A stretch of 52,136 nt of DNA from IMG/VR virus record IMGVR_UViG_3300033412_000022, positions 1 through 52,136 of that record; one strand, 5' to 3'. The stretch comes from a virus. Positions 3,140-50,709 of the stretch are shown in pieces. Position 1 is the first letter of the stretch. Each line of letters begins with the position of its first letter. Under the pieces are notes generated by a model that had not been told where the DNA came from, ran no database searches, and saw only the letters and a list, made by a program, of their open reading frames with translations. Made by a program: the position numbers and the translations under genes.

Positions 3140-3472
3140 TTAGGCGCTCCGCTGGGTGGCACCCCGGCGGGGCGTTTTTGTTTGTGTGCCAGGGCAGGAC
3201 TGCAATCCCGCCCCGGCGTTTGACCGGGTGTTCCCCGGTCGTTTGGGTTTCCCGCCGCGTGAACCGGTGAAAACCACAATCGAACAACTGAGGAGAGCCG
3301 CGAGCCGCAGGGCCATCGTGTAGTTCCGAACGGGGTAGCCCTGATCGTAATGGCGGACGGTGGAAACAGCGCGCCGTATCCGGGCCGCCAGTCTCACCAG
3401 TCCCTCCGGGCCGCCGTAGCCCGCCGCCTCGCGAGCCACCCGAAACGCCGAAGGTTTTTTCGTATCCGCCAC
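3140..3472 (-). CDS. Hypothetical protein, first gene after the early-left promoter
   Basis: GTG 3472 preceded by AGGAGA plus 9 nt. The C-terminal third is low complexity. Confidence 0.4.
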   Translation of the reverse strand: MADTKKPSAFRVAREAAGYGGPEGLVRLAARIRRAVSTVRHYDQGYPVRNYTMALRLAALLSCSIVVFTGSRGGKPKRPGNTRSNAGAGLQSCPGTQTKTPRRGATQRSA

Positions 3473-3614: not shown

Positions 3615-3848
3615 CTATGACTGAACACTTTCGACTTTCCCTGCTTGCCGCCGGGTTTCCTTTGCAGCTTCGGAGACAGTCTGAAGGTCGCACCCTATAA
3701 TGTCGGCGTAGGCCTGAAGAGTGGTGAGGCGGGTGGAGCCGTCCCTCTCAATCTTGTACAAAGCGGTGTACGAGATATTGAGACGCCTGGAAAGATCGAC
3801 AGGCGTAACCCCTTTGCTTTTGCGTAACTCTTTCAGCGTCATATTCAT
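3615..3848 (-). CDS. Cro-like XRE-family HTH regulator
   Basis: MNMTLKELRKSKGVTPVDLSRRLNISYTALYKIERDG is a classic HTH_3 pattern. The gene is divergent from the CI-like gene. Confidence 0.85.
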   Translation of the reverse strand: MNMTLKELRKSKGVTPVDLSRRLNISYTALYKIERDGSTRLTTLQAYADIIGCDLQTVSEAAKETRRQAGKVESVQS

Positions 3849-3982: not shown

Positions 3983-4429
3983 ATGTTGACGCTTTCTCGG
4001 CCCGCTCCAGTTGTAGGTTTAGAGAGGATTCCGCCCTTTATGGCGACCTCGTTCGGTCAATGGCTTAAAGAGCAGTTGGAGCGACGCGGACTGTCTCAAA
4101 GGCAGTTAGCACTCGCTGTAAATAAAACACCTTCACATATATCGCAGGTCATAAATGACCGCGGCGGATTGTCACCTGACCTGGTGAACGAAATCGCCGA
4201 TGTATTGGAAGTGCCACGCAAAGCAGCTTTGCAAGCGTGGATAGATTCGCAGTCTGGCGAAGGCGAAGAACTCACCCGCGAGCCAGTTGACCCGGATCTG
4301 GCGAGAATCAACGAGTTGTGGCGCGACGGCAAGATTTCCGAGCGAGACAAGAAAGTGATGCTCTTGCTTGCCGCCCAGAACGAGGAAGACGAGCGGCAGG
4401 ACTCCATCGGTAAGACTCCAAGCAATTAA
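3983..4429 (+). CDS. CI/ImmR-like XRE-family HTH repressor
   Basis: FGQWLKEQLERRGLSQRQLALAVNKTPSHISQVINDRGG. The start could be ATG 3983 or ATG 4040. Confidence 0.8.
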   Translation: MLTLSRPAPVVGLERIPPFMATSFGQWLKEQLERRGLSQRQLALAVNKTPSHISQVINDRGGLSPDLVNEIADVLEVPRKAALQAWIDSQSGEGEELTREPVDPDLARINELWRDGKISERDKKVMLLLAAQNEEDERQDSIGKTPSN

Positions 4430-5900: not shown

Positions 5901-7046
5901 GTGCCTGAAATCCTATTTGGAGGCACTGTTTTGAATCTTACATCTCCTCCTCAGGGTCAAACCGTGGCCCGGAGAATCGTCCAAAAACGGCGTGTCGCCG
6001 CGCCAACTTCCAAGCCCGCCATTATCGCCGAACGCCGCGACTTCCTGCTGGCGGCGCGCGTCCCCTTCCTCGTCCGGTCGTGGGCGGTGGATATGGAATC
6101 CGCGAACCGCTCCGATCGCTACATTGGCAATGTCACCGAGATCCTGGAAAAGTGGATTTGGTGGGCAGGGCATAATCAGTGCGAGCGTTTCGACACCAAC
6201 AGTCTGCGCGGGTTCCTGCGCTACGTCCAGACCGGTCACCAGTTGCCGGAGGGTCGCTGGGGCGAACCGGGGCAGACGCGGCAGGATCATCTGGGGAAAC
6301 CTGGCTATCCCATCAACCAGCGATACTCTCCCGTGGCGGACAGCACCGTTCTGGACTACTACCGCCGTATCCGCGGGTGGTGTTCCTGGCTCGTCAAACA
6401 GGACTATCTGGAATACTCACCGATTGATCGCGTAACCCAACCCCTGGCCCGCTCTAAGCCTCAGTTCAATGTCTTCTCGGAGGATGAGGTACGCAGGATG
6501 GAGGCGGCGGCCCGGAAGAGTAAAACCGCCGCGCGGGACACCGCGCTGGTGCTGTTCCTGGTGGACACCGGCCTGCGGGCGGAGGAAGTAACCACCCTCA
6601 CCTGGAGCCAGGTCAATATGGACAAGGACGAAGCGACATTCCAGGGGAAGGGCGACAAGACGCGCACTGTCTGGTGGAGTCGGGAGGTGGGGAGAGCGCT
6701 GTATGCCTGGAGGTCTGAGTGGGAACTGCCGGAGGGAACCAACGGCCCGGTCTTCCCCTCCCTCGCGAATCGGGCGCACGGGGGCACCATGGACCGCGGC
6801 GGCCTGAGGCATCTCCTGGCCCGTCTGGGGCGTGTTGCAAAGGTGGAGAGGTGCAACCCTCACACGTTCCGCCACACCTGTGCAACGATGCGCGCGCTGT
6901 CTGGCATGGAGCCGTTCGTCTTGAAGGAGTTCCTGGGACACGAGAGCATTGAGACGACCATGAAGTACATCAAGTTCGTTAGGGCCGATCTGTCGGCGAG
7001 CAGCAGGAAGCACAGCCCGGTGGCGATGCTAAGGCGGAAACGGTAG
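5901..7046 (+). CDS. int: Tyrosine recombinase / phage integrase
   Basis: NPHTFRHTCAT (HxxR) and LGHESIETTMKYI (catalytic Tyr) near the C-terminus. The start is uncertain (GTG 5901, or TTG 5931 after GGAGG). Confidence 0.9.
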   Translation: MPEILFGGTVLNLTSPPQGQTVARRIVQKRRVAAPTSKPAIIAERRDFLLAARVPFLVRSWAVDMESANRSDRYIGNVTEILEKWIWWAGHNQCERFDTNSLRGFLRYVQTGHQLPEGRWGEPGQTRQDHLGKPGYPINQRYSPVADSTVLDYYRRIRGWCSWLVKQDYLEYSPIDRVTQPLARSKPQFNVFSEDEVRRMEAAARKSKTAARDTALVLFLVDTGLRAEEVTTLTWSQVNMDKDEATFQGKGDKTRTVWWSREVGRALYAWRSEWELPEGTNGPVFPSLANRAHGGTMDRGGLRHLLARLGRVAKVERCNPHTFRHTCATMRALSGMEPFVLKEFLGHESIETTMKYIKFVRADLSASSRKHSPVAMLRRKR

Positions 7047-7057
7047 TTGAGAGGATG

Positions 7058-7083
7058 GGGATTATTCGGCGCCGAATAATCCC
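7058..7083. repeat. Palindrome copy 1: GGGATTATTCGGCGCCGAATAATCCC (26 bp, perfect)
   Basis: Lies between the convergent int and 388-aa genes. It shares the 16-bp core TATTCGGCGCCGAATA with 41214..41235 and 52010..52025; the copy at 19331..19350 has one core mismatch. Confidence 0.9.
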
Positions 7084-7169
7084 GCCTAACACAGGCGGCA
7101 TAGCCCGGTGGGATCATTATACAATAGGGAAAAGTGACTGGTGCCCGGAACAAAATTTGGAAACGGGAA

Positions 7170-8336
7170 TCAAATATTCCAATCACTGAACTCTGCCACA
7201 ACCTTTCTCCAGGGTCTCACCCAGTTCAGCCCGTTATTTTCGTCTTCATCCATACGGATTTTTCTGGTAATCAGCCGCGTCCACTTTTCTTCGGCGTGCA
7301 AAAGCAACGTTTGAACATCCAGCCCCTCGTTTACAATTCGATTCTCGATTTGTGCAAACCAGTACAAATATTGGCACCAGCCTAGCCGAACCCAGCTGGG
7401 GCGTTGTTTCCCAATTGGTGGCGGGTTCGAAATTAGACTTAGAATAACCGGCGAATACGGATTATCGCCTAAATCGCCAAGCAAACGTTGCCTGGAAAGA
7501 CGCAACACATCCGGTTCACGCAGAAAGGCCAAAAGTGATTCTTCGGTCCAATACGGTTTCATCCCTTTTGATTTTCCGCCACCGGTGTACCGTTTTGGAT
7601 CATAACGCCTTGACGTCCAATGCTTACCTGTTGCACAAACGCTGGCCCCTGCGTACTTCCATAGCACAATGTCGGATGACGTGCGGCTAACGATCACACG
7701 GAATCCGGCGCCCTCAAGGAGACTGATTAACTTCATCACGCCCAGTAGGTCATCGCTCTGATTCAGTTCGCGTCGTGAAGGCGTATTACCCACGAGAACT
7801 AGATATATTTCTTTTGAATCCGTGCGCGACAGTATAGACGCAATTTGCTCCGATCTACCGCCCTGCGCAATATCAGGTAAACTAATGACCGCTGTTTGAA
7901 TCACCTGAACATGGGAGCCTGATAGCTGGTTCGTTAAGAACCCACAGATGAAGACCGATAAGTCGTAAAAACTATCGTGGTAATGTTTTGGCACATCTAT
8001 AGGCGAACAGACTTTGTTGATGCCAAGGTTCAGGCATAAGTCAGCCAATCGCTGGCTTAATTGGTACCACCAAGTCTCGCTCCCTCGGTCACCACTTTCA
8101 AGTGCTGGTGGGAAATACGGCCATTGAGGTAAGTAACCGCTACGATTACCAGGACAATACAGTTCAGGGTCAAAAATCAAGTCAAAATCAGGTTTGCCAT
8201 ATAACTGACTGATGTCTTTCTCGATTTCTTCCCGCTCGCCATTAAAAGGGCTGAGGATTGCTCCTTTGAATTGGGCCAAGTGAGGTTCTTGTATGAGGCT
8301 CAAACTCTGGTGGCCCATCTGATAGTACACAGCCAT
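7170..8336 (-). CDS. Hypothetical 388-aa protein (third gene of the kinase island)
   Basis: Long ORF in a lower-GC region. I recognise no family motif. Confidence 0.7.
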   Translation of the reverse strand: MAVYYQMGHQSLSLIQEPHLAQFKGAILSPFNGEREEIEKDISQLYGKPDFDLIFDPELYCPGNRSGYLPQWPYFPPALESGDRGSETWWYQLSQRLADLCLNLGINKVCSPIDVPKHYHDSFYDLSVFICGFLTNQLSGSHVQVIQTAVISLPDIAQGGRSEQIASILSRTDSKEIYLVLVGNTPSRRELNQSDDLLGVMKLISLLEGAGFRVIVSRTSSDIVLWKYAGASVCATGKHWTSRRYDPKRYTGGGKSKGMKPYWTEESLLAFLREPDVLRLSRQRLLGDLGDNPYSPVILSLISNPPPIGKQRPSWVRLGWCQYLYWFAQIENRIVNEGLDVQTLLLHAEEKWTRLITRKIRMDEDENNGLNWVRPWRKVVAEFSDWNI

Positions 8337-8382
8337 TGTGCGACATCCTTTGACGGTAAAGTTACATCAACAATGAGAGGTT

Positions 8383-9219
8383 TCATTTCCAATCATTTAA
8401 CAGTTCATGTGGTCGCGTGTATCGCCGAACAGGCCACGAGGCAACCATTTTATAGAGAACCTTCAAATTTGAGGCGGAACAGGCGTTCGCAAAACGACGG
8501 GATACGACATGCTTCGATCCGACTTTTCTTACAACATCGTCTTGTGTATCATTCGGCTCGCTATAAGGGTGAAAACCGAATATACAAAACGAAAATAGAA
8601 CCCCCAACGCGAACTGGTCGGTTCTCCAGTCGATCATGCTTGTGTCATTGTTGAGTTGTTCTGGTGCTGAGTAGAACGCAGTACCTGGCCCCCTCGATTG
8701 CCCTGAAGCGGTCAGCGAGTACTGGGACAAATCGCGCACAAGACCAAAGTCTACAATAACTGGGGTGATGTTATCAGGACGGAACATTACATTTTCCGGT
8801 TTTAGATCCCGATGAACAATCTTCTTTTCAGCCATCTGAGCTATCGCCGGAATAAGTTGGTGACCAAGAGCTAGAAGTTCATCTCGCGTCATCAAGCTGC
8901 GGCGTAGTCGAGCTGTGAGTGTCCCACCCGATAAAAACTCCTCTATCAGATAGAGGTACGATTGGCCGCTATAGTCGAACACTCCAGACGAATGCAACCG
9001 AGCAAGGTTATCATGGGCGCAAAGCGCCATTGCTGCAATCTCCCGATCAGTTCTCTCTGACCTTGATTTCGTTGGATCAAAGATTTTCAAGGCGAAAGAC
9101 TCACCTTGAGCGTCCTTAATATGGAACGTTTCTTTGTATGCTCCTGCTGCTTTATAGCCGAGGAATTGAAACTGGAGACTACGACAAACCTCTGTTGCAA
9201 CCTGCTCGAATTGTGGCAT
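8383..9219 (-). CDS. Hanks-type (eukaryotic-like) Ser/Thr protein kinase, kinase domain only
   Basis: FALKIF (beta3 Lys), HRDLKPEN catalytic loop, DFG (DFGLVRD), and APE (YSAPEQ). Confidence 0.85.
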   Translation of the reverse strand: MPQFEQVATEVCRSLQFQFLGYKAAGAYKETFHIKDAQGESFALKIFDPTKSRSERTDREIAAMALCAHDNLARLHSSGVFDYSGQSYLYLIEEFLSGGTLTARLRRSLMTRDELLALGHQLIPAIAQMAEKKIVHRDLKPENVMFRPDNITPVIVDFGLVRDLSQYSLTASGQSRGPGTAFYSAPEQLNNDTSMIDWRTDQFALGVLFSFCIFGFHPYSEPNDTQDDVVRKVGSKHVVSRRFANACSASNLKVLYKMVASWPVRRYTRPHELLNDWK

Positions 9220-9643
9220 TCTGAGTGTCTCCTGACGAGAAAAACTTTGCTTCGTCCGACAACCAAGGCTGAAGTGGTTCTACCAGCGGCGCTTCATAAA
9301 GAACAACCACCTTATCGTCTTTAATGAAACAGATGCCCACTTCCCGGACTTCGAATTCCCACACGAAGCGAAATGCGGCGACGGCAATATTTTCAGGCAC
9401 GACTATGTATGACCGATGGGCAAAACAGGTGTTGCGGTAAGCCTGTTGGAGCGCCTTGCGCCATTTGGTCAGTTTCGCTTCAAAGGCAATAACGGTATCA
9501 TCATCGGCCACGACGACCACATCGGTACGACCGTTGGTATGGTCGAACTGCTCGGAAATACTAACAGTACTCCACTCTGCAGGAAACTGGTTCAAACATC
9601 CTATAAAATCATCTACTAGCGCTTGTTCGTTATTATACGCCAT
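9179..9643 (-). CDS. PD-(D/E)xK nuclease-like protein
   Basis: GRTDVVVVADDDTVIAFEAKL gives the D...E-x-K pattern, followed by QQAYRN. GGGGGGA SD before ATG 9643. Overlaps the kinase start by 41 nt. Confidence 0.5.
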   Translation of the reverse strand: MAYNNEQALVDDFIGCLNQFPAEWSTVSISEQFDHTNGRTDVVVVADDDTVIAFEAKLTKWRKALQQAYRNTCFAHRSYIVVPENIAVAAFRFVWEFEVREVGICFIKDDKVVVLYEAPLVEPLQPWLSDEAKFFSSGDTQNATIRAGCNRGLS

Positions 9644-9922
9644 ATTCGTCCCCCCGCGCTCAACATTCGACTACGTTGTACAACCGAATCGGTCTCGTGT
9701 CTAGGAAATCTATATATTCGTTGGGTTGGCTAAAATCTGGGGATGCAATAATCTTGCCCACAGTGGAGCGCTGTATATATCGACCAGTCCGACCACGCCT
9801 AGTAGACTGGTAAGGGTGCTGGTAGACGCCCAACACGCCCTTTTCCGCTTTTCCAGTATCCTACTAGTGGCTAACCAATTACCAATCTTCCTCCATATAG
9901 ATGGTGAGAAAGGACCACTAAT

Positions 9923-10273
9923 TTGGAATCTCAGTTTTATCCGGCTGGCAAAGCAACTCCAGAATCTGATGTACCACAATTCGTAAAGCAATGGGTCAAA
10001 GACCACCCAAACATCTACAAACTCTCTATCGATCAACAGTGGCGCCGCTTTGAACAGGGAGAAAACAAGAACTTAACCCCTCATGCCATCATGGAGGCTG
10101 GTTACATTCAGGAAGGCAGTTCCTGGGTGGCATTAGGGGAAATGCCTGGTACATTCAAGGGTAGCGGAGAAATCGTTTCCCTCGAGCGCATAGATGATGG
10201 CGCCACCATCTATTATGTGGGTCAAGCTCCGCAACGCGGTTTCATTCTCTGGTGCGAGATAAACCAGAGTTAG
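9923..10273 (+). CDS. Hypothetical protein (start uncertain)
   Basis: 116-aa ORF with ordinary composition in a lower-GC region. The track start is TTG and no clear SD is present. Confidence 0.3.
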   Translation: MESQFYPAGKATPESDVPQFVKQWVKDHPNIYKLSIDQQWRRFEQGENKNLTPHAIMEAGYIQEGSSWVALGEMPGTFKGSGEIVSLERIDDGATIYYVGQAPQRGFILWCEINQS

Positions 10274-10321
10274 TTAAACCATAGGGGGTTGGAGTTTAAT
10301 CCGCACGGAATAATTCCCACC

Positions 10322-11262: not shown

Positions 11263-12897
11263 GTGCGAACCAATGTGCTGTATTACGGCGATAACCTGCA
11301 TGTTCTGCGGGAGCGTATCCCCAATGACTCGGTAGACCTGATTTATCTGGACCCGCCGTTTTCGTCGGCCCGCGATTACTTTGTCATCTTTAAGGATAGG
11401 ACGGGTAAGGCAAGCGAGGCGCAGTCCGAGGCGTTCGGCGACACATGGGTGTGGGGTGAAGAGGCGGAGGCCGCGTACCGGGAACTCTGTGTCGGTTCGA
11501 CCCATCACCGGGTTAATCCAGACCTTGCCGTTACCATACAAGCGTTCCGAACCTTCCTGCGCGAGTCGCCGATGATGGCCTATCTGGTCAGCATGGCGAT
11601 ACGACTTCACGAGATGAAACGGGTTCTCAAACCGAACGGGAGCCTTTACCTGCACTGCGACTCGACCGCCAGTCACTACCTGAAGGTGCTGCTCGACACC
11701 ATCTTTACCCCCCAATGGTTTCGGAACGAAATCATATGGAAGCGCACTTCGGCGCACAACGATACCGCGCAGGGAACCAAAAGATACGGACGCAACCACG
11801 ACGTTATACTCTTCTACGCCGGGCCAGGAGCGACGTGGAATCCGCAATATATGCCCTATGACGAGGAGTATGTGCGCTCTTTCTACAAGCACAAGGATCC
11901 GGACGGGCGGCTTTACCGCCTTTCTGACATGACCGGACCGGGTGGGGCATCGAAGGGCAACCCGTATTATGAGGTCATGGGAGTCTCCCGATACTGGCGC
12001 TTCAGCCGCGAGAGGATGGAGCAACTTATCAGCGCAGGGCGGGTAGTGCAGACCAAGCCGGGGAGTGTGCCGCAACAGAAACGCTATCTGGACGAGATGC
12101 CCGGCGTTGCCGTTCAGGCTGTTTGGGATGACATCAAGCCCATCGGGGCGCAGGCCGCCGAACGGTTAGGTTACCCGACCCAGAAACCGCTCGCCCTGCT
12201 CGAGCGGATTATCCGCTGCAGCAGTAACCCTGGCGATGTCGTGATGGATACGTACTGCGGTTGCGGGACGACGGTCATGGCGGCGCATGGTCTTGCGCGA
12301 CAGTGGGTAGGAATAGACATAACTGCCGTCGCTACCTGCATTATCAAAGCGCGGTTGGAACAAACGTTTGGGGACCTTGCGGGGAAGGTGGAAGTCATCG
12401 GACTGCCGATGGATTTGGAAGGCGCGCGCACTCTCTTTGAGGCTGACTCACACCAGTTCCAGATATGGGCTTGTACGCTCATCGGCGCTTACCCGAACCA
12501 GAAGAAGGGCGCGGACAAAGGCATTGATGGATGGATGCCGATAGCGGATATGAACGATCACCCTCACAGGTGCGTTGTCCAAGTCAAAGGCGGGAAACCA
12601 ACCCTCAGTCAAATTCGCGACTTCTGCCATGTAGTGACGCGCGAGAAGGCCGCCATCGGGTTCTTCGTGACGCTCGGCGATATAACGCCCGCCATGAAGA
12701 CGGAGGCCGTCGCGGAAGGATTCTGGGACGCGGGACGCGGGCAGACCTATCCGAAGGTGCAGCTACTCTCCGTCGCGGAACTGATGACCGGACTGGCGAG
12801 GCCAAAGATGCCCACCCAGGAGAAGCGCTCCATCCTGGGCTATATGGCGAACCGACAGGAAAACAAAGGGCTTCAGCCAACGCTGGAGTTGGACTGA
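11263..12897 (+). CDS. Beta-class N6-adenine/N4-cytosine DNA methyltransferase fused to a C-terminal Mrr-like restriction-endonuclease domain
   Basis: Motif IV DLIYLDPPF, followed later by motif I VVMDTYCGCGTT (beta-class order). The C-terminus DKGIDGW...VVQVKGGKPTLSQIRDF...AAIGFFVTLGDITPA fits the Mrr_cat pattern. GAGGAGGAA SD before GTG 11263. Confidence 0.85.
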   Translation: MRTNVLYYGDNLHVLRERIPNDSVDLIYLDPPFSSARDYFVIFKDRTGKASEAQSEAFGDTWVWGEEAEAAYRELCVGSTHHRVNPDLAVTIQAFRTFLRESPMMAYLVSMAIRLHEMKRVLKPNGSLYLHCDSTASHYLKVLLDTIFTPQWFRNEIIWKRTSAHNDTAQGTKRYGRNHDVILFYAGPGATWNPQYMPYDEEYVRSFYKHKDPDGRLYRLSDMTGPGGASKGNPYYEVMGVSRYWRFSRERMEQLISAGRVVQTKPGSVPQQKRYLDEMPGVAVQAVWDDIKPIGAQAAERLGYPTQKPLALLERIIRCSSNPGDVVMDTYCGCGTTVMAAHGLARQWVGIDITAVATCIIKARLEQTFGDLAGKVEVIGLPMDLEGARTLFEADSHQFQIWACTLIGAYPNQKKGADKGIDGWMPIADMNDHPHRCVVQVKGGKPTLSQIRDFCHVVTREKAAIGFFVTLGDITPAMKTEAVAEGFWDAGRGQTYPKVQLLSVAELMTGLARPKMPTQEKRSILGYMANRQENKGLQPTLELD

Positions 12898-13577: not shown

Positions 13578-13645
13578 AAACAAGTTTATCACGATAAAAA
13601 TACATCCGTCAATAGGTTGACAAAACAAGTTTATAATGATATACT
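13578..13645. promoter_or_regulatory. Back-to-back divergent promoters, each overlapped by a 19-bp direct repeat; both transcripts would be leaderless
   Basis: Plus strand: TTGACA (13617..13622), 17 nt, TGaTATACT (-10 at 13640..13645), ATG at 13652. Minus strand: TTGACG (13612..13607), 18 nt, TAAACT (13588..13583), ATG at 13575. Repeats AAACAAGTTTATCACGATA (13578..13596) and AAACAAGTTTATAATGATA (13623..13641). Confidence 0.65.
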
Positions 13646-13651
13646 TGATTC

Positions 13652-13972
13652 ATGCAACGAACCATTGAACCCTCCGAACAAGCCCTGATGATTGCCGCCC
13701 GAAATGGCGAGCGCGATTACTTCAACTACGAAATCGAGGATTGGGGGCATGACGGCTATATGGTCTCCCACAAGAAGGACAAGGGTCGCGCCTACTTCGT
13801 TGACCTCTCGGACGCTTCCTGCCAGTGTCCCGCTTTTGAGAAGATGGGCATATGCAAGCATCTGTGGATTGTGGGAGAAACCCTGCGGATTGATGAGATG
13901 GCGAATGAATCCGACCTGAACTGGGAAGCGATTCCCGGCGAGTATGCAAGCCCGGATTACCGGAGATTTTAG
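13652..13972 (+). CDS. SWIM zinc-finger protein
   Basis: CQCPAFEKMGICKHL matches the CxCx(n)CxH SWIM signature; 106 aa. Confidence 0.7.
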   Translation: MQRTIEPSEQALMIAARNGERDYFNYEIEDWGHDGYMVSHKKDKGRAYFVDLSDASCQCPAFEKMGICKHLWIVGETLRIDEMANESDLNWEAIPGEYASPDYRRF

Positions 13973-13980
13973 AAAGGATA

Positions 13981-14002
13981 GGGGGAGGCAACCACCTCCC
14001 CC
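13981..14002 (+). promoter_or_regulatory. Intergenic stem-loop GGGGGAGG-caacca-CCTCCCCC
   Basis: 8-bp perfect stem, 9 nt after the SWIM gene stop. Confidence 0.6.
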
Positions 14003-14017
14003 CAAGGACCTCAACCA

Positions 14018-14248
14018 ATGAGACTATCACCCCCAAAATTCAACCGATGGCTACACCCATTCGATGACCGCAACGACTCCACCGGGCTTGTGGAGGAACA
14101 GACGGAGGAGGAAATCGAAGCGGAACGCGCCGAAGCGGACGCGATTTTGATAGCCGAAGGAGAGCGCGCCGGACGCGAAGCGAAGGAGCGGGGAGGCATT
14201 ATCCAACCCTCCCGAATTGACCCGAATGACCCATTCATGGGGTGCTAA
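14018..14248 (+). CDS. Acidic hypothetical protein
   Basis: 76 aa; AAGGA lies 9 nt before the ATG. Confidence 0.5.
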   Translation: MRLSPPKFNRWLHPFDDRNDSTGLVEEQTEEEIEAERAEADAILIAEGERAGREAKERGGIIQPSRIDPNDPFMGC

Positions 14249-14257
14249 TCGCAGACA

Positions 14258-14280
14258 GGGGGAGGAATCCCGCCTCCCCC
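14258..14280 (+). promoter_or_regulatory. Intergenic stem-loop GGGGGAGG-aatcccg-CCTCCCCC
   Basis: 8-bp perfect stem with the same arms as 13981..14002. Confidence 0.6.
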
Positions 14281-14314
14281 AATGACCTGATAGCGAGAAT
14301 CGCAATCTAAAGCA

Positions 14315-14560
14315 ATGAACAACATTCTTACCACCATCAACACCGAAGCCATTGAGACACCGACCCCGGCCCAGCGCCTGACCGTAGACACCGGCTATAG
14401 TTCCCAATGCGGAACCTGTAAAACCGAATTCTATTTGACCCGCCCCGAATGGGATGCTGTCTGGAACGGCGGCAACGATGTACCCTGTCCGGTCTGCGAG
14501 GGCGGCGAACCGCTTCCCATGACCGAGGAGGAGACAGCCTTCCCCTACCGCCAGCAGTAG
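14315..14560 (+). CDS. Zinc-ribbon hypothetical protein
   Basis: CGTC...CPVC pairs; 81 aa. Confidence 0.5.
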   Translation: MNNILTTINTEAIETPTPAQRLTVDTGYSSQCGTCKTEFYLTRPEWDAVWNGGNDVPCPVCEGGEPLPMTEEETAFPYRQQ

Positions 14561-14561
14561 A

Positions 14562-14600
14562 CCCCTACCCCCTACCCCATTGTCAGGGGAGGGGGGTACC
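14562..14600 (+). promoter_or_regulatory. Imperfect G/C stem-loop of the same family
   Basis: CCCCTACCCCCTACCCC-attgtca-GGGGAGGGGGGTA, directly after the stop at 14558..14560. Confidence 0.4.
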
Positions 14601-14618
14601 CCGAAAGGATAATCCCAA

Positions 14619-15197
14619 ATGCAAAATATGGACACCCAAATATCGCATTCCGAAGCCAGCGCGGAAACGACCGAGGCCAAACAGCCCTTTATCATTGACT
14701 CCCCGGAAGCCGCCGAATGGGTTCTGGAACTGTTCGCGCGCAACCGAGAGGAACGCGCCCGAAAGGAGGCCCAGATGCTCCGGAGGCTTGAGGAACTGGA
14801 TGCTGACTACAATTCCCTGCTCGGAAAGTTCGGGCCGCAACTGGAAGCATGGGGCAAAGAGGAAGCCGCGCGGCGGCGCAGAAAAACCGTAACTCTGGAC
14901 AATGGCACGATTACCTTCCGCCATCAGGACGCGCGCCTGGAGATAGACAGCCCATCGGATGCGATGACCACCGCCCGGCTCGTCTGTCCTGCCGCGTTTG
15001 TTTCGGAGACGAAAACGGTGGAGAAGTTCGATAAGGCCGCTTTCCTTGCCTACGCGCAAGAGAGGCTGAATACGGAAGGGGAACTGATACCGGGCATCAA
15101 GCGCGTGCCGGAAGGAGACGCCTTTTCCATCAAAATCGGAGCGGCGAAACTGAAGAAGGGTAAGGCCCTGGAGCAGGAAGAAGGAGAGGAGGAATGA
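14619..15197 (+). CDS. Mu Gam-like host-nuclease inhibitor family protein (tentative)
   Basis: Pattern IDSPEAAEWVLELFARNREERARKEAQMLRRLEEL...KTVTLDNGTITFR, plus the size (192 aa), resembles Phage_Mu_Gam as I recall it. Confidence 0.45.
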   Translation: MQNMDTQISHSEASAETTEAKQPFIIDSPEAAEWVLELFARNREERARKEAQMLRRLEELDADYNSLLGKFGPQLEAWGKEEAARRRRKTVTLDNGTITFRHQDARLEIDSPSDAMTTARLVCPAAFVSETKTVEKFDKAAFLAYAQERLNTEGELIPGIKRVPEGDAFSIKIGAAKLKKGKALEQEEGEEE

Positions 15198-15517
15198 ACG
15201 AACTGCTCATTACCCCGGATGGTTTCCGAATCATCCGGGGGCATATCACCGGCTATGAACTGATGAAGCCGGGGTGGAAGCCAAAGCCGACTTCCACGCA
15301 GAAACCCGGAAAGCGGGCTATCGTGGTCTGGATTTCCTCCGATGATGGGGGACGCCCGTTTGATGTGCCAACCACCCAGGCGGACAATGTGATGGCTCTG
15401 CTGGACCTGTTCGTCACCACCGGCGCGCCGCCGAAACTGGACCTGAGAAAAGCCATCCCCGCGCTTGAGGCGGGCGACATCTACATCGCGCAGGATGCGG
15501 ACGAATACAGAAAGTAA
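15194..15517 (+). CDS. Hypothetical protein
   Basis: 107 aa; ATGA overlap with the Gam-like gene. Confidence 0.5.
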   Translation: MNELLITPDGFRIIRGHITGYELMKPGWKPKPTSTQKPGKRAIVVWISSDDGGRPFDVPTTQADNVMALLDLFVTTGAPPKLDLRKAIPALEAGDIYIAQDADEYRK

Positions 15518-15539
15518 ATGGCCCGAACAGACAAACGAA

Positions 15540-15578
15540 AACGCCCCGGTTCTCTCAAGTTGAGAGAACCGGGGCGTT
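15540..15578 (-). terminator. Strong intrinsic terminator ending the late (minus-strand) operon; possibly bidirectional
   Basis: AACGCCCCGGTTCTCTCAA-g-TTGAGAGAACCGGGGCGTT (19-nt arms). On the minus strand it is followed by TTTTCGTTTGT. It lies between convergent genes. Confidence 0.85.
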
Positions 15579-18679: not shown

Positions 18680-19309
18680 TCACCCCTTTACTAACTGCAG
18701 CCCTGCTTCCTCATATTGCAGGCGGATCTCTTTTTCGACGTTGCGATTCTTGCAGATGAGATAGTAGAACCGCCATACCCCTCCGGCGCAGGCGATTGCC
18801 ACAAGCACGTACTGCACCGTACCCGGCGTTAATACTCCGTTCGCGGCAAGCAAAAGGGCAAGGAAAAACCAGATGCCCGCCGCCATGAGTTGACCGCAGA
18901 GCCTTGCCCATAGCCACAGACGCGCCCTGCGCCGGTCGCTGTCCAGAATATGCGGCTCGCCTCCCATCAGAAGCGCGATGAACTGATACGAGAGCAAGCA
19001 GAAGCACATGACAAAGAGCGCGGGCCGGGGCAGATGCTGCTCAATCGTGACAAGAAACGGTGATTGCCCCATGAACCAGGGATTGACCGAGAGCGGCAAT
19101 ACCCAGGAAACCGCGTAGCCAATGGAGAGGAGTTCAACGGATTCTGGATGGATGACGCCGAACACGGCTTTAACGCGCGCCCAGAGTTTAGCGAGAAAGG
19201 CTTGAATGGTTGACAAGATAACACCTCCGAGGGTTCTTTCAGGTTTCGTGACTGTACCTGTATCGCTCTGAAGTGATTCCCGTTCTCGGTTTTTGCTGTA
19301 TGCCGTCAA
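18680..19309 (-). CDS. Polytopic membrane protein
   Basis: 209 aa with several hydrophobic helices. Confidence 0.5.
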   Translation of the reverse strand: MTAYSKNRERESLQSDTGTVTKPERTLGGVILSTIQAFLAKLWARVKAVFGVIHPESVELLSIGYAVSWVLPLSVNPWFMGQSPFLVTIEQHLPRPALFVMCFCLLSYQFIALLMGGEPHILDSDRRRARLWLWARLCGQLMAAGIWFFLALLLAANGVLTPGTVQYVLVAIACAGGVWRFYYLICKNRNVEKEIRLQYEEAGLQLVKG

Positions 19310-19330: not shown

Positions 19331-19350
19331 TTTATTCGGCGCGGAATAAT
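19331..19350. repeat. Palindrome copy 2 (degenerate): TTTATTCGGCGCGGAATAAT
   Basis: Matches the ATTATTCGGCGCCGAATAAT consensus at 18 of 20 positions. Intergenic, between the tail and lysis genes. Confidence 0.7.
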
Positions 19351-38698: not shown

Positions 38699-40479
38699 CG
38701 TCGGCGACGGATGGAGCGAACCAGTGAGGTGGGACGCATCCCGGCGGGCGCGTCGTTCGTATCGAAAATGAAATCGGGCGCGGCGGCAAGCACAAAGCCG
38801 TCGCCATCATCGCAGGAGCGTTTCTTGCGCTTTTTGAAGTCGTCCTTAGCCTCTATCTGCTTGACGGAAATCCCCTGCCAGTTGACGTATCCGTAGGTGC
38901 GTTCGCACAGGTCGGCTTCGAGGGCATCGGGCGGGCGAACGATAGCGAGACGCTTAATGCTCTCGGCGGCATGGGCATACATCTCAGTGGCCCGATTACG
39001 ATAACTTTTCTCATCATGCGGGTTGCCGCCAAAATGGACTTCGATAATCCGCAGGTCGGCGAACAGGTCCTGTAGTTGCGCGTCCGCGTTCAGGTTGTCA
39101 ATGACGCCAGACCCGAACCCTCCGCCGCCGTCTATGCGGAAGTGAAGGCTCGTTACTCCCTGCTCCGACAGCCAGAGCGCCGCGGTCTTTGCCTGCCGCG
39201 TGTATTCACCGCTGTCCTGCTGGGCGAGCTGCCCCCATCGCCATACCCTGCCGCTCCAGCGAACATAGATAGTCCCGTAGTCCTTGCCGAACCTAGCCGC
39301 GTCAATCCCGATACGCGCCCAATTGGGATCGTCAATTGCCGGATCTCGGTCTTTTGACGCTTCGTATCTCCCGACCGGACAAAAGGTGTTATCGGCCAGG
39401 TTCGCCGGAGCGATGCCGCGCACGCGGAATAGGAACTCCGCGTCAGGTTTCCAGTGCGTAAGAGCAGGTAGAGCGCGGCCCTTATAGAGGACTGGATACG
39501 GGACGGTGAAAGTGTGGTTGTCAGGGTCATCGGTTTCTACCGGCTCGCAGTGGTCCTCAATCATCGAGAGAACATAATCACGGCGCACGGCTCCGGGAAC
39601 GAGTTCCTTGCCCGCCACCACGTTCGGATGGTGCAGGCAGGAGATGCGGAAACTTCGGGTGTTGGATCTGTCTTTTTGCTTATGGAAACGGGAACTTCGA
39701 GTCTCCGGGTTCGCGAACATGAGAACAATGGCGATGCCGCCCGATGTCATGGATTCGATAGCGTTAAAGACATAATCATCTACAGCTTCCGCTTCATCCA
39801 CGATAAACATGAGGTGTTCCCCATGCTGACCATGGACACGATGCGAGCCTTTATTGCCGCTGTTATCGGTCGCTCTGCCTGCTGCAAACCACGTAGGGGA
39901 TGGGGTCTTTATCTCGCAGGTTTCGAGTATTCTGCCAGGGAGGTTCTTACCCTGCCTATCGTCCTTGATTTCTTTCCAGAGAAGCTGCTTTATCTGATAA
40001 CTTGTCGGGGCGAACGTGTAAATGATGGGCCGGAAGTTATCGAAGAAGTGCGAAAATATGCCTGCGGCAAGCTTTGTCTTTCCGACAGTATGGCCAGCTT
40101 CGACACGGATAACGTTTTGGATAATGTCGCCGGGCGTCCAGTACAGCAGATCCGCTTCGGCGACTTTCCCGAGTTCAAAGTCTCGCCGCTCATGGAGCTG
40201 AAGCAGCGCCAGATTGTAGGCTTCAATAACCTCCGCCTGACCGGGCTTATCCATTGTCCCTCGCCAGGGCGTCCATCCAAGTTTCTCCGTGATGTAATCA
40301 ACCGCCTTGAAGCGGTAGCGGCTGTTCTCTTCCTTCCCGAACGTATCAGCAAGCCTGGCTGACCTAATACCCAATACCGCCGGGTTATCACTTGGGGCGG
40401 CCTGCTGGTCTGGGTAAATCAATTCTGCTCCAACGCCCTTCAACGTTTTCGAGAATTGCGGCGCGTAAAGACTCGTCAT
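38695..40479 (-). CDS. terL: Terminase large subunit
   Basis: Walker A GHTVGKTK and Walker B LMFIVDEAE; 594 aa; lies upstream of the portal gene. Confidence 0.85.
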   Translation of the reverse strand: MTSLYAPQFSKTLKGVGAELIYPDQQAAPSDNPAVLGIRSARLADTFGKEENSRYRFKAVDYITEKLGWTPWRGTMDKPGQAEVIEAYNLALLQLHERRDFELGKVAEADLLYWTPGDIIQNVIRVEAGHTVGKTKLAAGIFSHFFDNFRPIIYTFAPTSYQIKQLLWKEIKDDRQGKNLPGRILETCEIKTPSPTWFAAGRATDNSGNKGSHRVHGQHGEHLMFIVDEAEAVDDYVFNAIESMTSGGIAIVLMFANPETRSSRFHKQKDRSNTRSFRISCLHHPNVVAGKELVPGAVRRDYVLSMIEDHCEPVETDDPDNHTFTVPYPVLYKGRALPALTHWKPDAEFLFRVRGIAPANLADNTFCPVGRYEASKDRDPAIDDPNWARIGIDAARFGKDYGTIYVRWSGRVWRWGQLAQQDSGEYTRQAKTAALWLSEQGVTSLHFRIDGGGGFGSGVIDNLNADAQLQDLFADLRIIEVHFGGNPHDEKSYRNRATEMYAHAAESIKRLAIVRPPDALEADLCERTYGYVNWQGISVKQIEAKDDFKKRKKRSCDDGDGFVLAAAPDFIFDTNDAPAGMRPTSLVRSIRRRR

Positions 40480-41176
40480 CTACAGTGTCCGCGAGGCCAT
40501 GGTAGAGTTCAAAGCCGAACTCCTGCAGCTTTTCGCGCAGGGCATTGAGCGTGATGCTGCCCTCCTGGCGACTGCGCTGGATCTTCTCGATCAGCGCGCC
40601 AATACTGACAATGAAACTGCCGACCTTGAGAATGTCCGACACTTCCCGCGGCTTATTCTGAAACGCAATCGGTGCGGGGACTGGCGGCGGTTCGGGGTAA
40701 ACCTCCATCTTCGGAGGTTCAGGCCATCCGCCGCGGTAGTGGTGCTGTACTCTCTCCACCGTTTCCCGGTACGCTTGCCACTCGGCTTTCCAAGTCGCGT
40801 ATCCTTCCTGCCACTTCTCATAGGTTAAATGCCACTCGGAAACGGCGTTGCCAAACGCGGGATTGAAGGATGCGTGCCAACCGAGGAGCGCTTCGGTGTT
40901 TTCGTCATACCGTTCAATGTAATCCAGAATGAGCGCCCGGAGCAACTGAACTTCGGGAAGCAGGTCTTCCTGATTCTCTTCCTCCTGGAACGACTCGAGC
41001 AGTTCCTTGATGCGCGGCCTGCGGATCGCCGAGTACCTGGAACGCAGACCATGCTTGATCGGGGTTGCGCCGCCATGTAATTTACAGCGACCTTCGCCTA
41101 CATGGTTCGTCCCCCACCCAGCAGGACGCTGGCAAGGTTGCTTGCTTTTCGTGTTTGCTCCACAAACATCTGTCAT
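40388..41176 (-). CDS. terS: Terminase small subunit (tentative)
   Basis: The N-terminal CGANTKSKQPCQRPAGWGTNHVGEGRCKLHGG motif is common in small-terminase-like proteins, and the gene lies directly upstream of terL. Confidence 0.55.
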   Translation of the reverse strand: MTDVCGANTKSKQPCQRPAGWGTNHVGEGRCKLHGGATPIKHGLRSRYSAIRRPRIKELLESFQEEENQEDLLPEVQLLRALILDYIERYDENTEALLGWHASFNPAFGNAVSEWHLTYEKWQEGYATWKAEWQAYRETVERVQHHYRGGWPEPPKMEVYPEPPPVPAPIAFQNKPREVSDILKVGSFIVSIGALIEKIQRSRQEGSITLNALREKLQEFGFELYHGLADTVDDESLRAAILENVEGRWSRIDLPRPAGRPK

Positions 41177-41213
41177 GGGGTATGTCTGGAAACCGCCCTG
41201 TCATGGGGTATGT
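41170..41213. repeat. Two 16-bp direct repeats, CTGTCATGGGGTATGT, 28 bp apart, at the terS start
   Basis: Copies at 41170..41185 (contains the terS ATG) and 41198..41213, abutting palindrome copy 3. Confidence 0.85.
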
Positions 41214-41235
41214 GATTATTCGGCGCCGAATAATC
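41214..41235. repeat. Palindrome copy 3: GATTATTCGGCGCCGAATAATC (22 bp, perfect)
   Basis: Directly downstream of the 94-aa ORF stop and 38 nt upstream of the terS ATG. Confidence 0.9.
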
Positions 41236-41520
41236 CTATATCCGCGCTTCTCGCATCCGTCGCCGGAGCAGTGTCAAACCCTGTTCGGTGACTTGGCCTC
41301 GCCGCCCGCTACCCGGCGCCATGTGCCCTGCCATCTCCATGATTTCGGCAGGGATACCGCGAGCGGGAATGTCGTGAGAGAAGCCGTATCCCTGTGCCTG
41401 GAATGTCAACGCCTTCTCTCGCGCTTGCCGCGCGGCTTCTCGCTCCTGGGCCTTCTGCTCTTTTGTCCGGGTGTTGTTCATGGAAAGCATAAAGGCCCAC
41501 GCCAACAATGCGGAGTGCAT
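41236..41520 (-). CDS. Hypothetical basic protein (start uncertain)
   Basis: ORF of up to 94 aa; the MNNTRTKEQKAQ start at 41481 is also possible. Confidence 0.35.
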   Translation of the reverse strand: MHSALLAWAFMLSMNNTRTKEQKAQEREAARQAREKALTFQAQGYGFSHDIPARGIPAEIMEMAGHMAPGSGRRGQVTEQGLTLLRRRMREARI

Positions 41521-41669: not shown

Positions 41670-41699
41670 ATCGTATCTTTAGCAACAGCGCATAGTCAA
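41670..41699 (-). promoter_or_regulatory. Candidate late promoter TTGACT-18-TACGAT
   Basis: -35 at 41699..41694 overlaps the stop of the HTH gene; -10 at 41675..41670. Two hairpins follow in a leader of about 150 nt. Confidence 0.4.
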
Positions 41700-42037
41700 T
41701 TTGCACTATCTTTGCTGTTTTGCGCTCCTTGCAGACCCTCTTTGACCTTTTCGCGTATCGCCGCCTGATACCGGAAGTAGATGCGCCTGACAGTATTCCT
41801 GTGGCATCCGGTGAGGCGCGCGGCATCGCTGAAACTGCCCGTCGCGAGGTAGGCGTCTATCATCTGCAACTCTGCACTGGTGATGTTAGAGAGCGGCGGT
41901 ATGGAGCGCGTGGCGGTCAATCCCGTAACCCCCCGCTTCCCCCACGGTAGGCCATGAATGCCACCGGGATAAACATCACGATTAGCGCCACCAGGCACAC
42001 AGCCCGGATCAGAATCCTGAACGGGAGTAAAATCCAC
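41696..42037 (-). CDS. HTH DNA-binding protein (candidate late-gene regulator)
   Basis: ELQMIDAYLATGSFSDAARLTGCHRNTVRRIYFRY is an HTH (resolvase / IS-type). The N-terminal extent is uncertain. Confidence 0.5.
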   Translation of the reverse strand: MDFTPVQDSDPGCVPGGANRDVYPGGIHGLPWGKRGVTGLTATRSIPPLSNITSAELQMIDAYLATGSFSDAARLTGCHRNTVRRIYFRYQAAIREKVKEGLQGAQNSKDSAN

Positions 42038-46655: not shown

Positions 46656-47728
46656 TTAGCCGCTCTTTCCGTCTGCGCATTGTTTGCGTAGACCGGGTGC
46701 ATGGCGCTGGTGAGCGTCACTCGATCCCAAACGCCGTTGTTTTTCTTCAGCCAACGGGCGACGGGTTTGGGGAGCGGATGCGGGAGCGGGGCGTTGATAG
46801 CAACGACCAGGTATTCATCGGTGGTTCGGTCGAGGTAGATGTCGAATCGTCCTTCCTTCTCGAAAAGGCGCTTGCCTGTTTCTTCGGCTTCGGAGGAGGC
46901 TTTCATCCGGTCGAAGATGTTGGACGGGTCTGCCGGTTGGAATTTCGGCGTGGGGCCAGTAGGATTGATGTTTATTTTCGTTTCGCGACTAACGAGGTGA
47001 GGCCGACGATCCTCCGGGGTTGTTTTTGCCGGGTCGGGCCGCGTTGGGTTAATGGAAGATGTTTCCGCCCGCTTCCTCCGAGCGTAGTTGGCCTGGTAGG
47101 CGTTCATGCACTTTTTGCATTTGGAGGAGGCGCGGAACTTGCCGCGATAGTCGCAGACGGAGCATTCCCACTCTACTTCTGGTTGCGGGGTTTGAGCAGT
47201 CCCTCCTGGGGGTTCTGGAGCATCGCTTCCACTTCCGGCAACATCGCCAGGAGTCTCCGTCTCACTCCCCATAGGAACGCTATCCCGTTGTCCTGCGAGG
47301 TCGTTTCCTCCACTATCCCCAGGTCGAACTTCAGACTCTTCGCGTTGTCCTGAAGGCGCTTCAATCTCTTCTGGTTTCGTTTCCCCAGTTGCATCCTGTT
47401 CCTCCGCAGGTTCCTCGTCCCGATACCGATTGGTGTATTTCGCGTCGTTCACCAACTCCATCAGTGGGCGCACGGCAACCGCTTTCGGTATTGGCTCCGG
47501 CAGGTGCGGTTGTAGCACCATATTGGTTAGCGGATCCTCATCTTCGTCCATGCGAATCAACGAGCTGGTGAGACCCAGGCGGGCAAGACCTTCCTCAAAG
47601 TGGGCGCGCGCGGCTTCGAGGCGGACGCGACGAGCAGCGTCCGCCTCGAGCGCCTCTTCATCAAAACGGGCGTAAAGGTCAAAGATCGTTGCCCGGTTAT
47701 TCAGAATGATTTCTGCAACGTTAGCCAT
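46652..47728 (-). CDS. Acidic hypothetical protein with a central zinc ribbon
   Basis: WECSVCDY...CKKC. Start taken at ATG 47728 (ATGGCTAA overlap with the ThiF-like stop). Confidence 0.5.
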   Translation of the reverse strand: MANVAEIILNNRATIFDLYARFDEEALEADAARRVRLEAARAHFEEGLARLGLTSSLIRMDEDEDPLTNMVLQPHLPEPIPKAVAVRPLMELVNDAKYTNRYRDEEPAEEQDATGETKPEEIEAPSGQREESEVRPGDSGGNDLAGQRDSVPMGSETETPGDVAGSGSDAPEPPGGTAQTPQPEVEWECSVCDYRGKFRASSKCKKCMNAYQANYARRKRAETSSINPTRPDPAKTTPEDRRPHLVSRETKININPTGPTPKFQPADPSNIFDRMKASSEAEETGKRLFEKEGRFDIYLDRTTDEYLVVAINAPLPHPLPKPVARWLKKNNGVWDRVTLTSAMHPVYANNAQTERAAK

Positions 47729-50481: not shown

Positions 50482-50493
50482 TCCGCTTCCTCG

Positions 50494-50709
50494 CTATCCC
50501 TTGGTCGCAACCGCCCGTTTGAACTCCCACGTTTCCGTGCCATCTTTCGACTCCTTCAGGGTGAGGGTAGCATTGGTCAGGTCCGGGTAGGACTGCGCGA
50601 GAATGGCTTTAACCTGCTCCGGCGTTGACGCAGGGTTAGGATCGGCGAGCCGCATGGTGCCGTGCATGAAAATCCGGCGGGTTCGCTTCGGGGTTTCTGT
50701 GGTGCTCAT
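50494..50709 (-). CDS. Ubiquitin-like (beta-grasp) small protein, PRTRC protein C-like
   Basis: 71 aa. RIFMHGTMRLADPNPASTPEQVKAILAQSYPDLTNATL...WEFKRAVATKG ends in Gly. ATGA overlap with the parB-like stop. Confidence 0.55.
   Translation of the reverse strand: MSTTETPKRTRRIFMHGTMRLADPNPASTPEQVKAILAQSYPDLTNATLTLKESKDGTETWEFKRAVATKG

Follow-up and report, generated by a model that had tools for sequence, protein, structure and literature searches.

The genome of a temperate tailed phage carries a dispersed palindrome whose copies are probably the cognate loading sites of the phage's own ParB, that is, a private and non-canonical form of parS. This reading builds on the sequences of the sites and the protein and on analogy with characterized ParB-family systems. 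The original prediction had proposed parS-like sites for the phage ParB, and it is now supported by the co-occurrence of the palindrome with a rare ParB clade, a copy embedded in the parB gene, a match between a glutamine of the protein and an adenine of the site, and the finding that the palindrome is not a host repeat; from these we infer binding. The protein-site pair most likely recurs in a small, undescribed phage family; it adds a further example to systems of a known kind and is not a new principle.

Palindrome copies and their genomic context

Judged by its gene content, the window (the whole stretch of 52,136 nt analysed here) is a circularly assembled temperate tailed phage of 52.1 kb, derived from JGI metagenome 3300045391. 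Its first 45 nt are identical to its last 45 nt, and the window is thus a closed circle of 52,091 bp, which places the palindrome copy in parB only about 7 kb from the copy beside the integrase gene. Temperate-phage genes include a tyrosine integrase (5901-7046), divergent cI-like (3983-4429) and cro-like (3615-3848) genes, and RecT, and the virion and lysis genes identified are those for portal, S49 protease, major capsid protein, tape measure protein, and endolysin. In the leftward direction from cro, recT is followed by the circle junction, parB (50706-52112, minus strand), a PRTRC-type ubiquitin-like cassette, a RuvC-like gene, and the gene for a 1164-aa primase-type protein, after which come the packaging, head, tail, and lysis genes. 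The cassette lies directly downstream of parB (47721-50709, minus strand) and consists of Prok_Ub/PRTRC-C (50494-50709), PRTRC F-like (49210-50481), E2/PRTRC-B (48509-49213), and E1/ThiF (47721-48512) members; PRTRC-C, PRTRC-B, and ThiF score above their NCBIfam cut-offs, and the F match is weak. Within the 3' part of the primase-type gene, a field of ~20 GTGTATCT iterons in both orientations (42335-42748) is the probable origin of replication, and it is separate from the palindrome. A tRNA scan and an Rfam scan returned no matches.

The 16-mer TATTCGGCGCCGAATA is perfect at 7063-7078, 41217-41232, and 52010-52025 and carries one mismatch at 19333-19348, and a whole-window pattern search at up to 3 mismatches found no copies beyond these four. 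The expectation by chance is 0.35 copies in the window, and none of 100 shuffles reaches at least 4. The original prediction had named these four copies, had assigned them to the int/island, terS, parB 5', and tail/lysis contexts, had judged them to be beyond chance, and had suggested a genome-wide mismatch search; that search recovers all four, the contexts are correct at every site, and the chance estimate agrees. What changes is the 16-bp core: its four copies stand, and the conserved unit is refined to an 18-mer, TTATTC-N6-GAATAA, which with a relaxed centre returns the same sites plus a fifth, variant copy at 10296-10313. A repeat finder, run independently, groups all five copies into one family (D2), which is the sole dispersed palindromic repeat in the window. 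The centre varies among sites (CCGCACGG), and the flanks show no repeat structure outside the palindrome.

The copy at 7058-7083 (GGGATTATTCGGCGCCGAATAATCCC) is a perfect palindrome over 26 bp and lies 12 nt past the int stop codon, in the intergenic space between the stop of the integrase gene (plus strand) and that of a convergent gene (7170-8336, minus strand). The variant copy at 10296-10313 (TTAATCCGCACGGAATAA), also intergenic, has one arm mismatch and a centre resembling those of sites in two related loci (L018 and L115, described below); it is the weakest of the five, with ~0.2 such copies expected by chance on arm matches alone, and on these alone it could be of chance origin. A low-GC island (~7100-10300) is bracketed exactly by these two copies, with 7058 on the left and 10296 on the right. 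The copy at 19331-19350 (TTTATTCGGCGCGGAATAAT), whose arms are perfect and whose centre is asymmetric, lies between genes, with 22 nt separating it from the downstream start of a gene at 18680-19309 (minus strand); its neighbours are a 1026-aa tail-region gene and a 209-aa gene located upstream of the endolysin gene. At 41214-41235 (GATTATTCGGCGCCGAATAATC), a perfect 22-bp palindrome abuts the stop codon of a 94-aa gene (41236-41520, minus strand), 37-38 nt upstream of the ORF in terS position (40388-41176, minus strand) and ~1.1 kb from the iterons of the putative origin. The last copy (52009-52026, with its perfect 16-bp palindromic core at 52010-52025) falls in the 5' part of parB, where it is translated as YSAPN within the N-terminal tail of the protein.

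The phage ParB and its putative recognition residues

The proposed binder of these sites is the product of the 468-aa parB ORF, which contains ParB_N (PF02195, 7.7e-21) and HTH_ParB (PF17762, 1e-11) domains, the motifs GERRWR and ENAHR, a P/E-rich linker, and a clade-specific C-terminal domain. The true start is likely M14 at 52073, as in the 455-aa JGI call. The closest solved structures are Noc and Spo0J (E 1e-24 to 1e-22), to both of which the helix-turn-helix (HTH) domain was aligned residue by residue. Among 13 clade members, G105, R107, R108, E140, N141, and R144 of the GERR and ENxxR motifs are invariant, as is NPR; in ParB, the GERRxR arginine patch binds CTP (PMC7053999). A profile search found no match in the window ParB to the canonical C-terminal dimerisation domain PF23552, and a different C-terminal domain of ~90 aa is kept within the clade. 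Since PF23552 was not detected, the protein need not behave as a clamp. Its N-terminus is acidic and shows nothing like a membrane-targeting helix, and against the PRTRC system ParB family (TIGR03734) the protein scores 75.9 bits, below the family cut-off of 278.6.

The original prediction had noted that no ParA gene is visible, and the searches agree: none of the scanned ORFs in the window matches a ParA family, and no ORF of at least 50 aa contains a deviant Walker A motif (KGGxGK[ST]). A regular-expression search for the ParA-binding peptide [LFI]G[KR]G[LFI], as defined in PMC12704722, likewise found none in the window ParB, P0002, or P0003. By these sequence features, the window ParB is an orphan ParB with an intact DNA-reading head. 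Such a protein requires a site, yet neither canonical parS (consensus TGTTNCACGTGNAACA) nor NBS (TATTTCCCGGGAAATA) occurs in the window, each giving 0 matches at up to 3 mismatches.

The specificity of ParB and Noc is set by four residues (PMC7383237). R173 contacts guanine-1 of parS, whereas Q173 of Noc contacts adenine-1 of NBS, provided that there is a basic residue at 179 or 184, and residue 201 reads site position 6; the full Noc set is Q173, K179, K184, and R201 (PMC7383237). In our structure-based alignment, the equivalents in the phage ParB are Q (within ..VSQP..), R, R, and S, and the position of the conserved R204 is occupied by M/T in the window ParB and its clade. The Q at the 173 equivalent is near-invariant across the 13 clade members. 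The sites, for their part, give the consensus TTATTCSGY over the 28 half-sites of 14 sites, with T0, A1, and T3 in 28, and T2, C4, and G6 in 27. The glutamine thus appears to be matched to the invariant adenine-1, an argument that does not depend on co-occurrence. NBS and the site have T0, A1, T2, T3, and C7 in common and differ at positions 4-6 (TCC in NBS, CSG in the site), exactly where the protein, with its residues 201 and 204, departs from both ParB and Noc. A co-variation of site position 5 with ParB residues 201/202 was considered and rejected, because position 5 varies inside single elements.

Certain features of the sites speak against ParB as the binder. The conserved stretch reaches 1-2 bp past the 16 bp that ParB canonically covers, and its central 6 bp tolerate more variation than those of parS. 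Two loci of the ParB clade (L118 and L113) have no site. Finally, the loci described below were found through ParB, so co-occurrence would also fit another gene of the same early module.

Recurrence in the ParB clade and competing explanations

A word-indexed search of 5.8 billion proteins yielded two close relatives of the window ParB, and an exhaustive HMMER pass over 1.84 billion representatives yielded about eight more distant ones. The clade is therefore rare, with ~10 relatives among the 1.84 billion representatives. We retrieved the DNA around eight relatives (L020, L018, and L113-L118), whose ParBs are 36-69% identical to the window protein; most of these cover only part of their contigs (among them ones of 47.9 kb, 39.8 kb, and 25.7 kb), so the copy counts are lower bounds. 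The motif is present in six of the eight loci. In L020 (ParB identity 69%), one copy (TTATTCGGCACCGAATAA) lies at parB codons 3-9, and a second (TTATTCGGCGCCGAATAA) lies 250 bp from the L020 iterons, where the primase-type gene has its 3' end. L018 (50%) has one copy in the parB linker and one at the 3' end of a different replication gene, and L114 (49%) has a single copy in the parB linker. L115 (39%) has three copies: one in the parB linker, one where the replication gene has its 3' end, and one that precedes a terS-like gene by 39 nt. L116 has one copy at parB codons 4-9, and L117 (36%) has a degenerate one at parB codons 2-7. No copy was found in the retrieved L118 locus or in the 2.3-kb fragment of L113. 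The original prediction had proposed checking whether related phages with this ParB keep the palindrome, and six of the eight clade loci do so.

The most consistent placement is within the parB ORF itself, where a copy occurs in seven of nine elements (the window and six other loci), in keeping with the earlier remark that parS often lies in or near parB. These copies occupy three different ORF positions, always in a disordered N-terminal tail or linker, and are read as the peptide (D)YSAPN or DYSARN. Given the peptide YSAPN, the observed codons have p ~0.005 under the codon usage of the window genome, which points to selection on the DNA, with the peptide as a by-product. A site near the origin or the 3' end of a replication gene is present in the window, L020, L018, and L115, that is, in all elements for which the replication region was retrieved. 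The arrangement of 94-aa gene, site, and terS is the same in the window (41214) and L115. Overall, seven of 14 sites are inside coding sequence.

Much else differs between the elements. The iterons are GTGTATCT, AGATTCCCA, or GCGTAGC, the replication initiator is a primase-type protein or a 453-aa protein, and the integrase is a tyrosine recombinase in the window and a large serine recombinase in L018 and L114. The neighbours of parB are PRTRC genes, large N6/N4 DNA methyltransferases, or neither: PRTRC occurs in the window and L018 and is lacking in L020, L114, and L115, and large DNA methyltransferases lie near parB in L020, L114, and L118.

A control set was provided by a JGI metagenome scan with the ParB alignment, which was flooded by canonical chromosomal ParBs and was reused as both a negative and a positive control. 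It consists of 80 metagenomic loci with the nearest non-clade ParBs (~40% identity). All 78 of the HTH motifs detected in these loci read GKSR, with R at position 173, and 98 canonical parS sites occur in 53 of the 80 loci. The 16-mer is absent from the 80 loci at up to 2 mismatches, and TTATTC-N6-GAATAA at up to 1 mismatch is absent from these and six primase-relative loci (86 in total). The primase relatives P0058-P0060 accompany ParB_N-methyltransferase or ParB_N-only proteins, and the motif was not found there.

A scan of 596 Gb of genomes covering 185,579 species turned up the 18-mer 3 times, once in each of three genomes from unrelated low-GC taxa; the true host may be unsampled. Since chance alone would give as many or more, the palindrome does not qualify as a host repeat, and the REP-like host repeat that the original prediction had named as evidence against itself was not seen. 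The exact 16-mer gives 17 hits in IMG/VR, one per contig and never repeated; eight of these contigs were considered as relatives and rejected, since they carry a longer palindrome around the same core, lack ParB, and show no similarity to the window. ParB relatives were not found in IMG/VR by single-sequence or three-protein-alignment scans, tblastn with ParB against GenBank phages and PLSDB plasmids returned generic ParB N-domain hits only (~40% identity), and a word-based protein search with the C-terminal domain alone had no match. Three IMG/VR relatives of the PRTRC ThiF (L110-L112) lack the motif; a divergent ParB N-domain is found in one, and no ParB is detectable in the other two. A full-text literature search with the site sequences gave no match.

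The most serious competing explanation is that the sites are operators of another phage regulator that switches the blocks they precede, chiefly the 74-aa HTH protein encoded upstream of the packaging genes (41696-41920, minus strand). This protein is 64-70% identical in L018 and L020, and in every element its gene shares the interval from origin to terS with one site. Start codons follow several of the sites at a distance of 20-70 nt (41214 and 19331 in the window, 10435 and 9355 in L115, and 12558 in L020), and the shared order of 94-aa gene, site, and terS in the window and L115 would also suit an operator. We nevertheless regard this explanation as unlikely, as it leaves the parB-embedded copy, with its three positions in seven of nine elements, unexplained, and the seven intragenic sites are far from promoter-like positions. 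In addition, the match to the HTH protein in L115 is marginal (E 0.007), yet L115 has three perfect-arm sites; all Pfam matches of the 74-aa protein are below threshold; and the match of Q173 to adenine-1 is specific to ParB. CI and Cro operators were also considered and rejected: the cI-cro intergenic region has no copy, which makes CI and Cro unlikely binders.

If ParB is the binder, the sites might form a true centromere, with the phage existing at times as a plasmid or pseudolysogen whose partition, in the manner of N15 or P1, would use a host ParA. The original prediction had raised a centromere and drawn a parallel with N15, whose dispersed inverted repeats IR1-4 are centromeres (PMC7205306), and the position of a site near the origin or the 3' end of a replication gene in the window, L020, L018, and L115 recalls parS near oriC. 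The dispersed layout in that parallel stands: like the phage here, N15 SopB IR1-IR4 (and also P1 ParB-parS) present about four palindromes of 16-18 bp dispersed over the replication and late regions of a phage genome (PMC7205306). The plasmid lifestyle and the SopA/ParA partner do not, as the prophages of N15 and P1 are plasmids that encode a SopA/ParA ATPase alongside a type Ia ParB, whereas this phage integrates, lacks ParA, and has a ParB of chromosomal/Noc type. The absence of ParA from the scanned ORFs, of deviant Walker A motifs from ORFs of at least 50 aa, and of the [LFI]G[KR]G[LFI] motif from ParB, together with the integrase and the cI/cro switch and the position of parB, which belongs to an early lytic operon and not to a par operon with its own expression, make a centromere role very improbable. 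The N15 Sop system itself is reported, by Ravin et al. in 2008 as cited in PMC11652158, to facilitate late gene expression.

A third explanation takes the sites as recombination elements, whether integrase cores, module-boundary exchange sequences, or a mobile repeat of REP/MITE type. The layout of two arms around a 6-bp spacer does resemble the core sites of tyrosine recombinases, one copy is 12 nt from the int stop codon, sites occur at module junctions, and two copies bracket the low-GC island exactly. The integrase core site was rejected, because L018 and L114 use large serine recombinases and keep the motif; several identical core sites per genome would moreover be self-destructive. As for a mobile repeat, the 18-mer is repeated in none of the 185,579 species genomes nor in IMG/VR contigs, and the copies have no flanking repeat structure. 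Recombination elements are thus highly improbable, and the island could be explained by recombination at conserved ParB sites, as a by-product.

A hairpin role in RNA or DNA, whether as a factor-independent terminator, an mRNA stabiliser, a processing site, or a cruciform, is barely credible. Stable folds are predicted at 7058 (-21.5 kcal/mol, z -2.6), in a place between convergent genes typical of a bidirectional terminator, and at 41214 (-13.5 kcal/mol). The copies at 19331, 10296, and 52010, in contrast, are no more stably folded than their shuffles, ORFs contain half of the sites, and no Rfam family matches. The original prediction had argued against simple intrinsic terminators, and none of the copies is indeed followed by a U-run; canonical U-run terminators do occur in this genome, at 15578-15540, 18171-18145, and 3142-3177, and a terminator scan picks true terminators elsewhere in the window and none of the palindrome copies. 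The arms are invariant over the 14 sites with no compensatory changes, and position 5 is often asymmetric, which would break pairing. This is a signature of protein recognition rather than of structure.

Related systems and proposed mode of action

Under the preferred reading, in which the palindromes are loading sites of the phage ParB, the system can be compared with several characterized ones. Noc is the best structural and NCBIfam sequence match of the phage ParB, and both are orphan ParB-family proteins without the ParA-binding motif. Both have a Q at the position that reads adenine-1 and basic residues at 179 and 184, and the sites of both are 16-bp palindromes that begin with TATT and are dispersed on the replicon (PMC7383237, PMC8429893). 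In contrast to Noc, the phage ParB has S rather than R at 201 and M/T rather than R at 204, positions 4-6 of its site are CSG rather than TCC, its N-terminus is acidic and free of any sign of the membrane-targeting helix, and its C-terminal domain is different. It is encoded in a phage early operon rather than on a Firmicute chromosome, and the window has no NBS. Thus, of the features by which a Noc would be recognized, Q173 and basic residues (R) at 179/184 are present, residue 201 is S, and NBS is absent. On this comparison of sequences, the phage ParB may resemble Noc in its working but is probably not itself a Noc.

With canonical ParABS, the phage shares the ParB_N CTPase fold with GERRxR, the HTH_ParB domain, a 16-bp spacerless palindrome, and the placement of one site within or beside parB and another near the origin. 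It differs in having no ParA, ParA-binding peptide, canonical parS, or detectable PF23552, and in having Q at residue 173, where all parS binders have R (78/78 control HTH motifs). By its sequence features, the phage system is not a member of canonical ParABS.

Two systems from mobile elements offer further parallels. KorB of RK2 is a ParB-family CTP clamp that uses about a dozen identical, scattered OB palindromes and regulates distant promoters (PMC11790492). Like KorB, the phage protein would be a ParB-family clamp of a mobile element with identical palindromes over its replicon. KorB, however, works with IncC as its ParA and with KorA, which locks the clamp, and no KorA-like partner was identified in the phage; the OB sequence (TTTAGCSGCTAAA) and the DNA-binding domain of KorB are also unlike those of the phage. 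BisD of ICEclc from Pseudomonas loads as a clamp at bisS within coding genes, spreads over tens of kb, and controls a developmental programme (PMC12409273). It is a ParB-like clamp of an integrating element with private palindromes inside coding genes, as the phage ParB may be, and bisS was first spotted by palindrome screening, as were the phage sites (PMC12409273). BisD differs in having an activator domain, in working with BisC, and in the parA-like gene upstream of bisD, and bisS is an unrelated 23-bp sequence on a conjugative element rather than a phage.

By analogy with these systems, the site layout would fit a long-range role of the Noc/KorB/BisD type, and partition fits it less well (PMC8429893, PMC11790492, PMC12409273). 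A clamp of this kind, loaded in lytic growth, is accordingly more plausible than a centromere. In the mechanism we propose, ParB would be made early in lytic growth or upon induction, from the long leftward operon running from cro through recT, parB, and PRTRC to replication. A ParB dimer would read the 18-bp TTATTCSGY|RCSGAATAA via its ParB-type helix-turn-helix, with one monomer per half-site, and would nucleate at the 4-5 sites, close into a CTP-dependent clamp, and slide onto flanking phage DNA, as ParB, Noc, KorB, and BisD do. With a specificity orthogonal to canonical parS, only phage DNA would be marked. Without a ParA partner, the output would more likely be the organisation, marking, or long-range regulation of the replicating genome than plasmid-style partition. 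The sites would head gene blocks, with 52010 at parB and replication, 41214 at the packaging-to-tail block, 19331 at the lysis-proximal block, and 10296 at the island, and 7058 would lie at a convergent end.

A further step, which we consider conceivable but doubtful, is that the ParB clamp at its private, block-heading sites serves as a DNA-bound platform that times the lytic programme (from replication to packaging to lysis) at long range, targets the neighbouring PRTRC or methyltransferase enzymes, or does both. The targets would be phage DNA or DNA-bound proteins, with PRTRC as the partner in the window and L018 and methyltransferases in L020, L114, and L118.

Prophages and plasmids commonly carry orphan ParBs, but a DNA site or a function is known for hardly any of them (PMC12704722). 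In a 2025 survey of the ParB fold, the orphan ParBs of prophages count as uncharacterised, and PRTRC does not come up. The phage described here offers a concrete protein-site pair, in which Q would correspond to adenine-1 and the changes at residues 201/204 to the changes at positions 4-6, and so would extend the ParB/Noc recognition code. Its site is repeatedly written into disordered segments of the gene of its putative binder, which illustrates how a cis element and its binder may stay linked through phage mosaicism. A pair orthogonal to both canonical parS and NBS could also join ParB-based DNA-labelling toolkits (PMC11109969, PMC11798528). Should the link to PRTRC or methyltransferases prove functional, it would lead into a part of phage biology that is still uncharacterised, and if ParB does act as a platform, this would be the first function for a PRTRC-linked ParB and the first case in which a ParB clamp ties a prokaryotic ubiquitin-like system to one particular DNA molecule.

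Sequence features around the palindrome copies

Two copies of the palindrome form the exact borders (7058-7083 and 10296-10313) of a 3.2-kb low-GC island at 7100-10300, where GC content is 0.45-0.51 versus 0.57-0.66 on both flanks. All genes of the island are on the minus strand: one encodes 388 aa, another (8383-9219) is Ser/Thr kinase-like, and two more are small. This bracketing could be coincidental, could serve to insulate a moron, or could stem from insertion or recombination at a putative ParB site. The variant palindrome at 10296 is separated by about 1 kb from a gene for a 544-aa DNA methyltransferase (11263-12897, plus strand); GGCGCC, which forms the centre of the main palindrome sites, is a frequent target of both restriction and methylation.

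At the gene occupying the terS position, we observe two exact 16-nt direct repeats, CTGTCATGGGGTATGT, situated 28 nt apart at 41170-41185 and 41198-41213. The predicted start codon of this gene (41176) is overlapped by the first repeat, and the second adjoins the palindrome at 41214. The repeats could form an element related to pac or terS, or they could reflect the duplication of a translation start.

Outside the window, the identical 16-mer core is found in an unrelated family of eight viral IMG/VR contigs (L001, L003, L005, L007, L008, L010, L016, and L017), where it is embedded in a palindrome of ~30 bp, CCCGTTATATTCGGCGCCGAATATAACGGG. These contigs have a GC content of 0.52-0.58 and carry one copy per fetched locus; no ParB was detected in them, and they are not similar to the window. 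The core that they have in common with the window may be a matter of coincidence or convergence.

The parB locus and gene neighborhoods in related phages

The annotated parB ATG is preceded, at a distance of 7 nt, by a C10/G10 homopolymer tract at 28-37 (equivalent to 52119-52128). The assembly closes on itself at this point, and the tract could be a slippage-prone or assembly-sensitive spot. The tract also lends the M14 start (52073), which has a GAGGA ribosome-binding site, more credibility than the ATG at 52112.

Directly 3' of parB, the early operon of the phage contains a PRTRC-type prokaryotic ubiquitin-like cassette (47721-50709, minus strand) consisting of Prok_Ub/PRTRC-C, F-like, E2/PRTRC-B, and ThiF/E1 members. 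To our knowledge, no function has been assigned to PRTRC, and its presence in a tailed temperate phage is uncommon. In the related phages L020, L114, and L118, it is instead a large N6/N4 DNA methyltransferase that comes after the same ParB.

The window also contains a small rightward operon (13617-15578), whose promoter-like site at 13617-13645 (TTGACA-17-TATACT) comes close to the consensus. The operon includes a Mu Gam-like gene (14619-15197); in L020, the Gam-like gene is directly upstream of parB. A terminator with an 18-bp stem (15540-15578), for which the U-run was scored on the minus strand, marks the junction with the leftward lysis-side genes.

Iteron fields

Within the 3' third of the primase-type gene, GTGTATCT occurs ~20 times in both orientations with a 9-bp period (42335-42748), making this region a probable iteron-type origin. 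Analogous fields, composed of unrelated iteron sequences, are found in the relatives L020 (11975-12307; AGATTCCCA) and L018 (17973-18099).
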